10,358 bases of DNA from a virus: UHGV virus genome UHGV-0379321; one strand, written 5' to 3'. Numbering within the stretch: position 1 is the stretch's first letter; the number at the start of each line of letters is the position of its first letter. Under the pieces are notes generated by a model. The model searched no databases. It had not been told where the DNA came from and was given only the letters and a program-made list of their open reading frames with translations. The position numbers were made by a program, and so were the translations under genes. Shown in pieces: positions 191 through 6,878 of this stretch.

Positions 191-266
191 TGGTGCTGGT
201 TAACGGACTTGAACCGCTACCCATTCGCTTACAAGGCGACTGCTCTACCATTGGAGCTAAACCAGC
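191..266 (-). tRNA. tRNA-Thr (anticodon UGU), phage-encoded
   Basis: 76-nt cloverleaf folded by hand on the minus strand: 7-bp acceptor GCTGGTT/AACCAGC, D-stem GCTC/GAGC, anticodon loop CTTGTAA, T-arm AGCGG-TTCAAGT-CCGTT, discriminator A, encoded CCA. Differs from E. coli thrU. Confidence 0.7.
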
Positions 267-271
267 ATATT

Positions 272-346
272 TGGCGGGACAGCGTGGACTCGAACCACGA
301 TAAGAAGGTTAACAGCCTTCCGTAATGACCTTTATACGACTGACCC
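272..346 (-). tRNA. tRNA-Asn-like (anticodon GUU), phage-encoded, one acceptor-stem mismatch
   Basis: 75-nt fold: acceptor GGGTCAG/CTGTCCC with a U4-U69 mismatch, perfect 5-bp anticodon stem GAAGG/CCTTC, loop CTGTTAA, T-arm CGTGG-TTCGAGT-CCACG, discriminator G, encoded CCA. D-arm is weak (3 bp). Only 5 nt from the tRNA-Thr. Confidence 0.5.
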
Positions 347-1777: not shown

Positions 1778-1914
1778 AGGTGAGCCGTGTAGTTGAAGGT
1801 TTTTACGTCAGATTCTTTTGGGATTGGCTTGCGTTTATTTCTGGAGCGTTTCGTTGGAAGGTATTTGCAGTTTTCGCAGATGATGTCGGTGATACTTCGT
1901 CGCTGTCGTCTCAT
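1732..1914 (-). CDS. ninE: NinE-like small basic protein (60 aa)
   Basis: [60 protein letters not shown]; 60 aa as in lambda NinE. ATG at 1912-1914 overlaps the ninB stop. NinE versus NinD assignment is from memory and not certain. Confidence 0.7.
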
Positions 1915-2339
1915 GCCGCCCTGTCTCCCCATCGCGCTTTCCATTCGAGAGCCAGTCGCGCTTCGTCCGACCACTTAACGCCACGCTCTGTACCGAATGC
2001 CTGTATAAGCTCTAATAGCTCCGCAAATTCGCTTACACGCATCCTGCTGGTTGACTGGCCTATTACCACAAAGCCATTCCCGGCAAGGTTAGGAACAACA
2101 TCCTGCTGCTTTAATGCTGCGGTAAACACACACTTCCAGCTTTCTGCATCCAGCCAGCGACCATGCCATTCAACCTGACGAGAGACGTCACCAAGGCAAG
2201 CCCAAAGCTTTCGATTCTGGTCTAAGCTGCGGTTGCGCTGCTTAAACTCGACAATGATGTCTAAATCGCATGTCCTAAGATACTGAATGGCGTTATATCT
2301 TATAGATTCATTAGTAAGGTGATATTTGACACATTTCAT
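1911..2339 (-). CDS. ninB: NinB (Orf-family recombination mediator) with a divergent N-terminus; restarts 1 nt after the HNH ORF stop
   Basis: From [75 protein letters not shown] to the C-terminus it matches lambda NinB residues 33-146 almost exactly. ATG at 2337-2339 with GAGGT RBS gives 142 aa (lambda NinB is 146). The six-frame ORF extends to a TTG at 2426, which I do not favour. Confidence 0.8.
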
Positions 2340-2832
2340 TTTAATACCTCGCAAATTCGCCGAAACATTCATCCGCTTTATTTGCATATACTTTATGAGC
2401 TTCCTTTGGGTCATCGTAAAACCCAAGATTAACTTTCCTCTTGTTGATTACGATTTGCGCCCTCCATTTTCTTGATTTCTTATCCCATGAAACGCCTTTA
2501 TATCCTGATTTGTTATTTGCCTTTTTGTTTACGTTTTGGATGTTTTGAGATCGAGTTGCCAATCTAAGATTTGCTATACGATTGTCATCCCTAACGAGAT
2601 TTATGTGGTCGATATCACTTTTTGGTAGACTGCCATTCATATAGAGCCACGCCAGCCTGTGTGCCTTATAAAGTTTTCCATCGACTTTTATTACCCAGTA
2701 GCCTTCGCTACTCTTATGCCCTGCGATATCCCCAGCATTCATTCTCTGGCATTTCTTTACTTTCCATGTGAATTTCCCTGTTAACTCATCGTAGAGAAGG
2801 ACTTCTTTAAGTCTCTGCTGAGTTATTTGATT
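2262..2832 (-). mobile_element. About 570-bp homing-endonuclease insertion inside ninB (between NinB codons about 32 and 33)
   Basis: Sequence homologous to lambda ninB stops after ...CCAACCAAACCAATC (around 2833) and resumes at ...ATCATTGTCGAG... (around 2262); the intervening DNA encodes the HNH-AP2 domain plus 78 nt that supply a new NinB start. Confidence 0.65.
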
Positions 2833-2928
2833 GATTGGTTTGGTTGGGTCTGGAATGATTTGCTGTACTGCGTGAATAGCGTTCTGCTGATGGATGTGGC
2901 TTCTTAGTTCAAACGTTAGTTTCCTCAT
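2341..2928 (-). CDS. HNH homing endonuclease with C-terminal AP2 DNA-binding domain, fused in frame to the first 32 codons of ninB
   Basis: Residues 1-32 (MRKLTFELRSHIHQQNAIHAVQQIIPDPTKPI) match the lambda NinB N-terminus. The rest carries an HNH motif (DIDHINLVRDDNRIANLRLATRSQN) and an AP2-like segment (SGYKGVSWDKKSRKWRAQIVINKRKVNLGFYDDPKEAHKVY). GGAG RBS before ATG 2926-2928. Confidence 0.85.
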   Translation of the reverse strand: MRKLTFELRSHIHQQNAIHAVQQIIPDPTKPINQITQQRLKEVLLYDELTGKFTWKVKKCQRMNAGDIAGHKSSEGYWVIKVDGKLYKAHRLAWLYMNGSLPKSDIDHINLVRDDNRIANLRLATRSQNIQNVNKKANNKSGYKGVSWDKKSRKWRAQIVINKRKVNLGFYDDPKEAHKVYANKADECFGEFARY

Positions 2929-3145
2929 GGGATGAACTCCAGTTTGCGATGTTAAATTCCCATTTAATTACCTTTGCATACCCAATTTTGAACCCATCAA
3001 TACCTATCCACCGATTGCCACTCCAATAAGCTGTACCACTTTGCTTGAAATGATGTGGATGCCTAGATTGAGTGGTCACAGTTACAGGTAAATATGGCTT
3101 CGGGTATTCCCCATTCCCTGGATAACCAGATTTAATTTTGCTCAT
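2909..3145 (-). CDS. Hypothetical 78-aa protein, translationally coupled to the upstream ORF
   Basis: ATG 3143-3145 overlaps the upstream TGA (ATGA), preceded by GAGAGAGGG. No family recognised (MSKIKSGYPGNGEYPKPYLPVTVTTQSRHPHHF...). Its 3' end overlaps the start of the ninB-HNH ORF by 20 nt. Confidence 0.45.
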   Translation of the reverse strand: MSKIKSGYPGNGEYPKPYLPVTVTTQSRHPHHFKQSGTAYWSGNRWIGIDGFKIGYAKVIKWEFNIANWSSSHEETNV

Positions 3146-3468
3146 TGATACCCTCTCTCACTTAATCGCGCCCACGCTTCGTTAAACTCTTCTCGGGTTG
3201 CGCCGGATTTTCTTTCTTCAAACATCATGCATTCGCTGATGTCTCCCCATGACTTTGGTCGCTTTTCAGCGAACAGATCATCCCATTCGAATACCCAGCG
3301 TCCTGATTTTCGGTAGTGGTAAATGGTCAGCCATGTTGTGCTGTTCGCTGGATACCCATAGAGAACTTCGACTTTTTGATCACGGTCTTTATGCTTTTTC
3401 AGCAGGATAAAGCCAGCAACCAGCGAAGCTCCGGCAAGAATGATGATTGGAATTTGCCAGTCAGCCAC
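3142..3468 (-). CDS. Hypothetical 108-aa membrane-anchored protein (one N-terminal TM helix)
   Basis: Hydrophobic segment IPIIILAGASLVAGFILL followed by KKHKDRDQK (positive-inside) and a roughly 80-aa soluble domain. GGGAGAGGGA RBS. Occupies the slot where lambda has ren/ninA. Confidence 0.55.
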   Translation of the reverse strand: MADWQIPIIILAGASLVAGFILLKKHKDRDQKVEVLYGYPANSTTWLTIYHYRKSGRWVFEWDDLFAEKRPKSWGDISECMMFEERKSGATREEFNEAWARLSERGYQ

Positions 3469-3540: not shown

Positions 3541-5934
3541 TCATACGTCAGCCCCTTGTGCATATCGTCTGCCACGCGCAGCAGGTGCATTTGATGCTGT
3601 GCAAATCTGTCTGGCTTCATCCTGGTCACATGCAACAAAGTGTCCGTTACAGAACCGCTGGTAAACCGTACCAAGTGAGCCAAAACGGTTTTTCGTCACG
3701 ATGATTTCAGCAAATGGCGCGGCGCTACTGTTCTCGTCATATACCGCTTCCCGATAGAGCATGATGATTGAGTCTGCGTCCTGCTCAATGCTTCCTGAAT
3801 CACGCAAATCTGCGTTTGTCGGGCGTTTGTTTGGTCGCTTCTCAACATCGCGAGAAAGCTGACTTAGGGAGATAACAGGCGTTTTCAGGTCTTTCGCCAT
3901 CGCCTTCAGGCTTCCGGAGATGTGAGCAATTGCGAGGTCGTTGCGGTCTGCTTTCGGCTTCTCAATCAGGCCAAGATAATCCGCCATGATGAGTGACAGG
4001 TTTGGATTTTCCTGTTTGTGTCGTTCTGCGATTGAGCGTATTTCTTCGACCGATAACCGCGAGGCATCGACTACCCATACATCCAAATCCGCAAGCTGAC
4101 TCATGCCGTTAGCAACGCGCGCCCAGCCTTCGTCATCCATCGCTGCAGGATTTCGCAGTACGCTAACCGACATCCTCCCGGCGTTGGCAATACTTCGCTC
4201 TGCAATCTGCAATGCGCTCATTTCCATTGAGAAAATCAATACTCCGCGCCGGACGTCAGAACCAGGAATAACACGGCTTGCAACGCCTTCGGCAATCTTC
4301 AGCGCCAGTTCCGTATTGTGCGTAACGATGTAATCCGTTGTCACATAGAGATGGCTAGGATGGCTTACCATGATGCAGAGACACTCTTCTGGCTCAACAA
4401 CTTCAACCGATTTGATACCCACACCAAGGTCGCCAAGCCTGTTAATCCCGAGATTTTTGCGTAAACGTGGTGAGTGAATTTGCTCTATCAAAGATGATGG
4501 CAACTTCATGCTGACCATGTGTGCATCAAGTCCGTCATGCTTCTCTCCTTTGTACGTGTAAACTATTCCCGTCCTGCTGGATTCTTTGGCGGTTCCACCT
4601 AAAGATCTAGCAAGCCTTACTAATCCTTTAGCTAATTTCTGACTGGATGAACTAAAGCGGATGCATCCGGACTTCTCAACCCAGCCATCTGTCTCGAGAA
4701 GGCCAGTTAAAACACCGGTACGTATTTCTTTGCTAGCACTAAAAATTTCTGCTGGGATTTCCTTCTCGGACGCACCTTTCCCGATCACCCCAATGCCACG
4801 TAGTTTGTCCAATAGTGGGTTCTTCTGGCCTTTTTGGTTGCTTATCAAATAATCATTCTCTCCTACCTTAACCAGTCGCAATGGTGCAATTGCATCACTC
4901 ATGCGGCTCAGGACATATTCTTCCGAGTTGGTGAATTTGATGCCTTTTATCAACGAACCGTCACCAAGTAGAGCACCAATAACCCAACCATCAAGGGAAA
5001 TATTTTTACCAAAGTCTCCGGTCAAGGATGGCACTCTTATTCTTCCCTGATAACGTGTTTTTTGTAGCATCCCAGCCAGCGCATCAGTATCAACAACGCG
5101 TTTACCAGTAAATCTTGATGATGAAATTTCCCATAAGTGGTTGTCGGCACATTTCACGCTACGTCCGTCTTCAAAGGTGACTAAATATGTGAATTTCTTC
5201 CCTTGTGGGAAGACGCCAATTACCTCCGAAGGAAGCCCGTCTATTGACGCGATGCGATCGCCAATTTTGACTTCTCCGTGAGTAGTCCAGGTGCCATCTG
5301 CAAGTAAAATCCCTTCGCTTAGCGCCATTGCTTTCCCCATACCAGGACGAGCAGCGATTATCACCAGGTCTTCCGCGTTCATCCCTCCGGTGATGGCGTC
5401 AAGTTCTTCGATTCCGGTCTTCAGGGTATCTGACTCTTCTCCGTTCCTCAGGCGCCTGTCAAGCGTGTCAGTGTAGTCAGTGATGATTTCCCCTAACCGT
5501 ACAGGTTTAACCTCGTCACGGGGCTTTCTGATGGCTGAGAGACGCTTTACAAGCTCGTCCATCGCCTGACTCGATGTATCGATGGTTCCGTTCTGAATTG
5601 GTTCACGCATTTCATCCATGATTTCCAGCACCAGACGGCGGTGATAGTTATCCGCGACCATTCCGGCATATCCCTTCAGGTTTGCGGCACTCGGGCAGTT
5701 TTTGCTGGTCATCAGGATTGACGTGAAATGCTCCTCTCCGCACGCCTCGGCAACCATCAGCGCGTCGATTAGGTTTCTGTTTCGCGCCTGCTTGCGGATA
5801 ACCTCGAAGGCTTTCCGGTAGAGCGGAATTGAAAACGCTTCCGGCTCCAGCGTTGCCAGAACGTCACTGGCAGTTGGTGTTAATCCACCAATCAGCAGAC
5901 CACCGATAACGCTCGCTTCGATATCCTGTCTCAT
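3541..5934 (-). CDS. Replicative DnaB-family helicase (P22 gene 12-type) interrupted by an intein; 797-aa precursor, 458-aa predicted spliced product
   Basis: DnaB N-terminal domain ([14 protein letters not shown]), Walker A split as ...[10 protein letters not shown] | intein | [10 protein letters not shown]..., DnaB motif [15 protein letters not shown]. Start ATG overlaps the O stop (ATGA). Confidence 0.9.
4315..5331 (-). mobile_element. Intein (339 aa) with LAGLIDADG homing-endonuclease domain, inserted between Lys and Thr of the helicase P-loop; class-3-like
   Basis: Starts with Ala after GMGK, ends in HN followed by +1 Thr. Two LAGLIDADG-type motifs ([15 protein letters not shown] and [15 protein letters not shown]). 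Block-B-like CADNHLW with Trp, a Cys in the F-block region (EECLCIMV) and Thr in VTHN fit the WCT pattern of class 3 inteins. Removing it restores GMGKTELAL. Confidence 0.8.
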
Positions 5935-6878
5935 GCAATCCCCCTGTCTGCAAACTTCCCTTCCCGAACTCCCGTTAACGAGTCTTCCCTCAGCAGGTAA
6001 TCAAAATCTGCCGTCCAGCCCGTGTCGTTGTCTCCGAAGTAAAACGGCTTGGCCTGATGTACAAACGCCCTGACATACGCTCTGAAACCGTCCACGTTTG
6101 GCGTTTTCAGTTGCGGGATGATTTTCTTCAGGCGGCGTTTGCGTTTCTCGTTGACCGCAACAGCGTGTGGCAGTCTGTCACCAACTTCGGTGTTGTAGGC
6201 GTTCAGGAAGGATTCGTAGTCGATGCGTTCTGCCTTGCGACGTTCAGGTTTAACCTGCCCATCGCCTCCCCCATTGGGGGGTAGGGGGGTATTATTTATA
6301 TTCTTGTTAATACCTTCTTGTTCATGATGTGCGGTTGTTTGTGCGGCTTCATGTGCGCTTTCATGTGCGGCATGTACGCTGAATGCCGCGCCATTACTGG
6401 CTTCATCATGTGCGGCATCATGTGCGGTTGTTTGTGCGGCTTCATGTGCGGGTGAATTGTCCATTTTTTGAGCATATTCATGGTAATTTGTGATGGTTAT
6501 CACACGACCTTTTTGCTTCTCCCCATCAATGGAGATCATCCCCTCTTTCACAAAAACCTGAAGCATCCGCTCAACCTGATCACGGCTTGCCGGCTTGCCA
6601 TGCCTGTCGCATAACTGAAGACCTAAATCAGCTGCTGTCACAACCAGTTGACCGGGTTGCAGATGCCATTCATGACCTTTGAAATTCGCTTTGTATGGCT
6701 TTCTGGCAGCATTCAGGAGAAGGTTTTCCCACAGGGTGCGAAGATAAACATCTTTCGCCCATGACTGTTTCAGAATGCTCCGGTACAACGGAATGTAACC
6801 AGTTTTCTGGTTCTCCATCCTGTTGCTCCTGCGCTCGTGTGCGGCGATGAAATCGTAGATTTTTGCTGTATTGCTCAT
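5931..6878 (-). CDS. O: Replication initiator, lambda O-like N-terminus, with internal origin
   Basis: N-terminus [10 protein letters not shown] resembles lambda O (MTNTAKILNF). Central low-complexity His/Ala-rich linker is encoded by the repeat array; C-terminal domain differs from lambda O, consistent with pairing to a DnaB-type helicase. ATG 6876-6878. Confidence 0.8.
6327..6451. repeat. Candidate replication origin iterons (about 9 copies of ATGTGCGG-like units in two blocks) inside the O gene
   Basis: Units (A/T)TGTGCG(G/C) at 6327, 6339, 6351, 6363, 6372, 6408, 6420, 6432, 6444; a 36-bp block at 6323-6358 is repeated almost exactly at 6417-6452. An AT-rich stretch and the palindrome CCCCCA-T-TGGGGG lie just downstream (6272-6320), as in the lambda ori layout. 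Confidence 0.55.

Follow-up and report, generated by a model that had tools for sequence, protein, structure and literature searches.

The locus described here raises the question of how a phage gene that has taken up an endonuclease gene within its coding sequence can still encode its own product. Homing endonucleases that reside inside genes are thought to survive mainly in self-splicing introns or inteins, apart from a few phage cases in which the gene is split and its pieces reassemble. The stretch analyzed, hereafter the window, comprises 10,358 nucleotides of virus genome UHGV-0379321, and the gene in question is ninB (orf) of a lambdoid prophage, which is read on the minus strand and is interrupted by the coding sequence of an HNH-AP2 endonuclease. 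Our analysis indicated that the insert is probably a mobile HNH-AP2 homing-endonuclease cassette that repairs the interrupted gene with a portable replacement N-terminus. An earlier note on this DNA had proposed an insertion that preserved both an endonuclease and NinB; both open reading frames (ORFs) were recovered in our analysis, but the note had missed that the endonuclease and the exchanged N-terminus appear to travel and co-evolve as one mobile unit.

The insertion was mapped by alignment with two uninterrupted genes, the ninB of E. coli EC20, which has the same upstream gene, and the ninB of phage HK022. The results showed that collinearity with uninterrupted ninB ends after codon 32 (ATC, 2835-2833) and restarts at CGC AAC CGC (2237), corresponding to R39 of lambda NinB, so that the cassette between these borders is 595 nucleotides long (2832-2238). 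The earlier note had called for an alignment with uninterrupted ninB, and the present one placed the HNH-AP2 gene inside ninB at about codon 32, as that note had supposed. The ORF that crosses the left border (2928..2341, minus strand) encodes 195 amino acids and joins residues 1-32 of lambda NinB in frame with an HNH and AP2 endonuclease; 27 of these 32 residues are identical to lambda NinB (PDB 1PC6; phmmer E-value 3.7e-12, residues 1-41). The endonuclease part of the cassette is without a start codon of its own, and a reading of the sequence between the ninB ATG and Met63 found no in-frame ATG, GTG or TTG, which means that the endonuclease can be produced only from the ninB start. Among 27 relatives of the endonuclease the protein starts 0-3 residues before the motif ITQxRLKE, and the NinB leader was confined in this comparison to the cassette endonuclease and its two nearest relatives. 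The view that the endonuclease borrows the ninB start was thereby upheld, and HNH genes that natively begin with the NinB leader, which would have meant that there was no insertion, were not what the comparison returned, the relatives starting at the ITQxRLKE region instead. The lack of an own start codon also accounts for a systematic mis-annotation: the Prokaryotic Genome Annotation Pipeline (PGAP, RefSeq) splits the fusion ORF into a 117-nucleotide ‘HNH endonuclease’ pseudogene and an HNH gene started at ATA, ATC or Met63 (locus L001, 3273-3860, and the equivalent positions in L002 and L008-L013).

Profile and structure comparisons were used to characterize the endonuclease. The Pfam HNH_3 domain was matched at fusion residues 87-129 with 60.9 bits (cut-off 24.8), the part of the ORF after the NinB residues matched the HNH endonuclease family PHROG 99 with an E-value of 2e-74, and residues D107, H108, N116, N129 and N132 were invariant across 30 relatives. 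A structure model gave predicted local distance difference test (pLDDT) values of 83-98 for residues 34-195 and low values of 47-66 for leader residues 1-32. The best PDB fold match of this model was I-HmuI (1U3E; probability 1.00, root-mean-square deviation (rmsd) 3.8 over 96 columns), and the AP2 region superposed on the plant AP2 domains of TEM1 and AtERF1 with an rmsd of 1.3-1.5 over 45-53 columns. These domain and model matches point to an HNH homing endonuclease of the I-HmuI type with an AP2-like domain, for which cleavage and homing are predicted.

The fusion ORF ends in TAA (2343-2341), and after a single spacer base (A, 2340) an ATG (2339-2337) opens a second ORF of 142 amino acids, which we call NinB′ and whose TGA stop overlaps the ATG of ninE. 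NinB′ matched the Pfam NinB family (PF05772) with an E-value of 2.3e-46 and 157.3 bits (cut-off 23.8) over profile positions 4-131 of 131, in line with the earlier proposal of a separate, near full-length NinB ORF one base after the stop; it also matched PDB 1PC6 (E-value 1.7e-73) and PHROG 72 (E-value 2.4e-47). The NinB′ model had a pLDDT of 85.6 and a fold match to 1PC6_A with an E-value of 1.5e-15 and a template modelling (TM) score of 0.61 over 141 columns. In the family alignment NinB′ keeps Q45, K48 and W50, which are channel residues studied by mutants in lambda Orf (PMC4118853). Residues of NinB′ pair with lambda residues numbered higher by four (n with n+4), and residues 28-34 bear only a weak likeness to lambda. 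Three details given in the earlier note had to be revised: the foreign segment is 34 codons rather than 27 residues, given that DNA homology resumes only at the R39 codon; residue 28 pairs with lambda residue 32 and not 33; and the 78 nucleotides taken as non-coding encode the replacement N-terminus, leaving only one non-coding nucleotide in the insert. The earlier note had called the first 27 residues new, if possibly distantly NinB-like, and had not recognized in them a true NinB N-terminus. In protein alignments the replacement segment falls in with the NinB family, and natural members also show its four-residue loop deletion; the segment is thus a genuine but foreign and diverged NinB N-terminus. 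The closest natural class of NinB N-termini is about 35% identical to it, as estimated from the listed sequences. On sequence and model, NinB′ appears to be a complete NinB encoded without splicing, and it would presumably act as a recombination mediator. The parts of the locus are listed in Table 1.

Table 1. Parts of the interrupted ninB locus and their positions in the window.
Feature	Position	Strand	Remarks
GGAG ribosome-binding site of the resident ninB start	2937..2940	-	8 nucleotides before ATG 2928-2926; now serves the endonuclease fusion
Resident ninB codons 1-32, displaced 5′ end	2833..2928	-	Translational leader of the endonuclease; collinear with EC20 and HK022 ninB through codon 32
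Mobile cassette (endonuclease body, stop, 1 nucleotide, replacement ninB codons 1-34)	2238..2832	-	Absent from uninterrupted ninB
HNH-AP2 endonuclease body, codons 33-195 and TAA stop	2341..2832	-	Pfam HNH_3, AP2; PHROG 99
GAGG ribosome-binding site for ninB′	2347..2350	-	Inside the last endonuclease codons (A-R-Y); 7 bases upstream of ATG
Replacement ninB 5′ end, NinB′ codons 1-34	2238..2339	-	49% identical in nucleotides to the 5′ end of lambda type
Resident ninB body, lambda codons 39-146 and TGA stop	1911..2237	-	Near-identical to lambda, phage 21 and HK022 ninB

We then asked whether the replacement N-terminus occurs apart from the endonuclease. A degenerate DNA pattern for it was found in 13 viral contigs, 12 of one lineage (lineage 1) and one of a second (lineage 2), and in seven metagenome contigs, all seven with the fusion ORF upstream. 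With the 8 cassette-bearing E. coli genomes included, an endonuclease fusion preceded every replacement N-terminus found. No cassette-free ninB with this N-terminus was present in the E. coli genomes, the phage records or the GTDB representatives. The GTDB alignment search with the replacement N-terminus returned lambda-type ninB only, much of it apparently lambda contamination, and no start of the form MK[CT][VI][KR]YHL, while a protein search with the 40-residue replacement N-terminus returned two fragments only. The earlier note had reasoned that intact ninB genes beginning with this N-terminus would speak against an insertion; no ninB starting with MKCVKYHL was found without an endonuclease fusion upstream.

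Lineage 2 (P0002, L006 and the IMG/VR contig 3300011908_000014) has the same architecture: a NinB leader of the resident type precedes the endonuclease, and after the stop codon an ATG begins a 142-amino-acid NinB′ that starts with MKTIRYHL. Its resident ninB is of a Cronobacter-like type. The GCGAGG upstream of the ninB′ ATG is conserved in this lineage. Between the lineages the endonucleases are 69% and the replacement segments 68% identical in amino acids, and the ratio of nonsynonymous to synonymous substitution rates (dN/dS) is 0.06 for the endonuclease and 0.10 for the replacement segment, with synonymous sites saturated. These low ratios show purifying selection on both parts and indicate that the endonuclease and the replacement segment have long been kept functional together. 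In lineage 2 the left and right borders with the resident gene fall a few codons differently, near codons 27 and 45, respectively, a shift that is expected if the homology available for repair sets the borders. Together, these data suggest that the endonuclease and the replacement N-terminus move and evolve as a single mobile unit.

The distribution of the cassette was surveyed in 5426 complete E. coli genomes using a 590-nucleotide cassette query. Eight genomes carried it, always at full length (100% coverage), with at least 99.2% identity and in a single copy, while a wider query of the ninB region had a match in 2147 of the 5426. The cassette was also found in 12 IMG/VR viral contigs and one Salmonella contig; an alignment search with the endonuclease among GTDB species representatives gave no confirmed locus. 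It occurs in at least six different gene neighbourhoods, those in the E. coli genomes having three kinds of replication genes or an insertion sequence (IS) element upstream and dam, MT-A70, PAPS reductase, ninE or another HNH gene downstream. Across 21 cassette-bearing loci the nucleotide diversity (pi) of the endonuclease was 0.0056 (7 haplotypes) and that of the replacement segment 0.0053 (2 haplotypes), as compared with 0.070 (13 haplotypes) for the resident 5′ codons and 0.119 (20 haplotypes; pi 0.074 if locus L092 is left out) for the ninB body. The flanking ninB sequence (pi 0.06-0.12) is thus 10-20 times more variable than the cassette (pi about 0.005), and diversity changes abruptly at either border; precisely at the right one the count goes from 0 to 13 variable sites per 30 nucleotides, and eight flank haplotypes occur within 40 nucleotides of it. 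In three loci (L092, 3001-4000; L136; L152) an identical cassette is joined directly after RNRS to a very distant body of the NinB family, while the 5′ leader is of the lambda type; the hybrid product has 134 amino acids (Pfam NinB, E-value 3e-32), and the gene combines three ninB sources. A homing element is expected to be present or absent at a single site in alleles that are otherwise homologous and to be younger than its flanks, and both features are observed here. Repeated break-initiated gene conversion predicts just such a picture, in which the element is young, its flanks are old and varied, and junctions are crowded at the borders.

Based on these results we propose the following mechanism. 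With the cassette inserted at about codon 32, ribosomes that initiate at the resident ninB ATG would make the NinB(1-32)-endonuclease fusion. After termination at the TAA, translation would start one base downstream at the ATG preceded by GAGG, by coupled or by fresh initiation, and would yield the 142-amino-acid NinB′, with 34 N-terminal residues from the cassette and the rest from the resident gene. During co-infection, or when a lysogen is infected, the predicted nuclease would cut a cassette-free ninB near codons 27-45, and repair of the cut gene would copy the cassette from the cassette-bearing allele. The latter would itself be immune because its site is split and the downstream half is replaced by diverged sequence. 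At 49% identity, the two ninB 5′ copies would also offer little homology for recombination that deletes the cassette.

Several observations weigh against this proposal. The AP2 match (fusion residues 141-181) scored 29.4 bits, below the 33.3 cut-off, and the resemblance of the NinB′ model to 1PC6 is only moderate (rmsd 6.8). The cassette is rare: about 0.15% of the complete E. coli genomes carry it, and DNA searches of 50,697 phage records for close and for distant matches did not detect it, returning only unrelated HNH genes (about 67% identity over about 200 nucleotides). No cassette-free donor of the replacement N-terminus, from which the cassette could have originated, was found in the E. 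coli genomes, phage records or GTDB representatives. Signs of decay are seen among the 29 lineage-1 copies: in E. coli E200086 (L009) Cys60 of the endonuclease is changed from TGC to TGA (equivalent to window 2749), and in two metagenome copies (L149 and L150) there is a frameshift at ninB′ codon 7. Either some cassettes are decaying, which fits the usual life cycle of homing elements, or these are read errors. Lambdoid phages also recombine freely, and such mosaic exchange may explain some of the diversity of the flanks. Cleavage, homing and expression of the cassette are what we infer from sequence rather than what we have shown.

The rarity of the cassette and its absence from the sequenced phages searched by DNA, together with the one nonsense and two frameshifted copies and with natural mosaic junctions inside ninB (for example in P0138), would also be compatible with a fossil, that is, one ancient insertion that has been spread only by lambdoid mosaic recombination and whose endonuclease is inactive or domesticated for some other phage function. 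We consider this unlikely, given that the catalytic residues are invariant and that a dN/dS of 0.06 is maintained across saturated synonymous divergence. Moreover, the cassette is 10-20 times less diverse than sequence only tens of bases away and meets many flank haplotypes at its borders, a pattern that fits break-initiated conversion better than random crossovers. Very unlikely, in our view, is a functional domain fusion, in which the leader would guide the nuclease to NinB′ or to substrates of recombination and the arrangement would be a module for recombination instead of a selfish element. NinB-HNH fusions are indeed known in other phages (Orf-HNH, DUF968), the leader is in frame in 28 of the 29 lineage-1 copies, and a helix is predicted in the structure model at leader residues 11-24. 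However, DUF968 proteins combine a whole Orf domain with a C-terminal HNH, as opposed to the 32-residue fragment seen here, the leader is modelled with low confidence, and an in-frame leader is needed for translation alone. The leader, moreover, follows the local ninB allele, with 13 haplotypes against a near-invariant endonuclease.

A continuous NinB could in principle also be obtained by bridging at the RNA or protein level, through a group I intron, an intein, programmed frameshifting or readthrough. The point in its favour is the lineage-2 copy L006, in which the ninB′ ATG directly follows a TGA in the same frame; nevertheless, the evidence makes bridging extremely improbable, not least because splicing would join two N-termini. 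A group I intron was rejected since an Rfam scan of positions 1800-3200 at an E-value of up to 1 found no intron family, only a chance CRISPR-repeat match, and the insert, with its one non-coding nucleotide, has no room for a ribozyme, which agrees with the earlier preference for re-initiation over splicing. An intein was rejected given the TAA at the end of the fusion ORF and the lack of any Hint or intein domain among the Pfam matches of the 195-amino-acid ORF. Depending on the copy, the fusion stop and the ninB′ start are one base apart (+1), directly adjacent (0) or overlapping in ATGA. The two ORFs therefore have no constant relative frame, by which conserved recoding was rejected, and independent initiation is the sole feature common to all copies. 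A search for an internal promoter or terminator in the cassette found none above shuffled expectation. A possible parallel case of a captured gene start in P0046 (a 38-residue N-terminal extension) was rejected, as it precedes a VRR-NUC gene and has no duplicated segment.

We compared the mobile cassette with known systems. The closest likeness is to the mobile ORFs (mORFs) with a foreign gene terminus of fungal mitochondria, described for Glomus atp6, atp9, cox2 and nad3 (PMC3630166) and, as cited there, for the atp6 mORF of Allomyces macrogynus (Paquin, Laforest and Lang, 1994). Like the cassette, mORFs are free-standing endonuclease ORFs in phase with a protein-coding gene, and they bring a copy of the displaced gene end that is diverged and was acquired horizontally, giving a complete hybrid gene with the native end retained beside it. 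They differ in that mORFs replace the 3′ end and leave the native 3′ end unused downstream, whereas the cassette replaces the 5′ end and the native 5′ end has become the endonuclease leader; the cassette, moreover, is found in an enterobacterial temperate phage, encodes an HNH-AP2 enzyme and supplies the restored gene with a new ribosome-binding site and restart. By analogy, the cassette would work as a mirror image of the mORF type, but with its N-terminal replacement in a lambdoid prophage it is not a member of that type. In Aeromonas phage Aeh1 the endonuclease gene mobE divides nrdA in two (PMC3045599; reviewed in PMC2988022); mobE is likewise a free-standing phage homing-endonuclease gene inside a coding sequence, without intron or intein and with the function of the host gene retained, as it presumably is for NinB′. 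There the NrdA halves are made separately and reassemble, while here a 32-residue fragment is fused to the nuclease and a single-chain NinB is rebuilt from a portable segment.

The hidden HNH insertions of the ShiLan type in actinophage DNA methylase genes (PMC11855218) resemble the cassette in being HNH homing elements in a phage gene without a self-splicing element and in the unorthodox way in which the insertion is tolerated. There translation continues in frame across the insertion, which forms a tolerated loop, and the HNH gene lies in another frame, in contrast to the stop and restart seen here with the HNH in the frame of the host gene. Finally, the Orf/NinB-HNH fusions (DUF968) of Gram-positive phages (PMC4118853, PMC2034487) share with the cassette fusion the combination of NinB-family sequence and an HNH nuclease in one polypeptide, but consist of an entire Orf domain followed at the C-terminus by a zinc-finger HNH, the two being thought to act as one enzyme, as against a 32-residue fragment with an I-HmuI-like HNH and AP2. 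We found no description in the literature of a homing endonuclease in ninB, nor, in the literature searched for phages and bacteria, of a stop and restart with a replacement gene start.

In its wider genetic context, the window corresponds to the early-right region of a lambdoid prophage. On the minus strand it encodes cI and the genes of the cro side, the replication protein (O-type) and the helicase (DnaB-type), a pair of small ORFs, the cassette locus and then NinE, NinF, NinG and Q. The two small ORFs upstream of the fusion are conserved phage ORFs (2909-3145, PHROG 29435, and 3142-3468, PHROG 5903, both minus strand), of which the former overlaps the start of the fusion ORF by 20 nucleotides and is without PGAP annotation in related genomes. 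The DnaB-type helicase (3541-5934, minus strand; 797 amino acids) is split by an intein with a LAGLIDADG homing-endonuclease domain, its Pfam matches being DnaB, DnaB_C in two stretches, LAGLIDADG_3 and Hom_end; among 713 E. coli genomes having the helicase, only 24 had a full-length match to the intein-bearing form. With an intein in dnaB and the cassette in ninB, a single prophage thus holds two independent selfish endonuclease elements in a span of 3.6 kb. The O-type replication gene (5931-6878, minus strand) contains a repeated protein stretch around 6300-6480, and these repeats are probably origin iterons lying inside the gene, as in lambda. At 191-346 (minus strand), genes for tRNA-Thr (TGT) and tRNA-Asn (GTT) lie downstream of the Q antiterminator gene. 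In other lambdoid prophages a different HNH gene of 175 amino acids with an AP2-like tail lies directly downstream of ninB (L003, 2710-3237; L009, 2419-2946); it is 34% identical to the cassette endonuclease, and L009 has both. Two further loci (L008 and L012) have more HNH or NUMOD4-HNH genes after ninF. These additional genes around ninB and ninF mark the nin region as a hotspot for HNH genes.

In a more speculative extension, which we regard as quite unlikely as a whole, the cassette would exploit its own target, a recombination-mediator gene that it keeps intact, the leader tethering the nuclease to NinB′, SSB or the recombination machinery and so channelling the break into copying repair. 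The scheme of stopping, restarting and supplying a new gene start could then be a third general way, in addition to introns and inteins, for homing endonucleases to colonise coding sequence in bacteria and phages. For the locus itself, the cassette would represent a different solution in a temperate phage to survival inside a gene, namely a borrowed translation start combined with a diverged and portable substitute for the gene start that was displaced, and this substitute probably also confers immunity to re-cleavage and leaves little homology for deletion. The cassette explains the recurrent mis-annotation of the locus by PGAP, and it likely represents a new endonuclease specificity aimed at a conserved phage gene. 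It would offer a tractable lambda-based system for the spread of such elements and for the function of a hybrid NinB.

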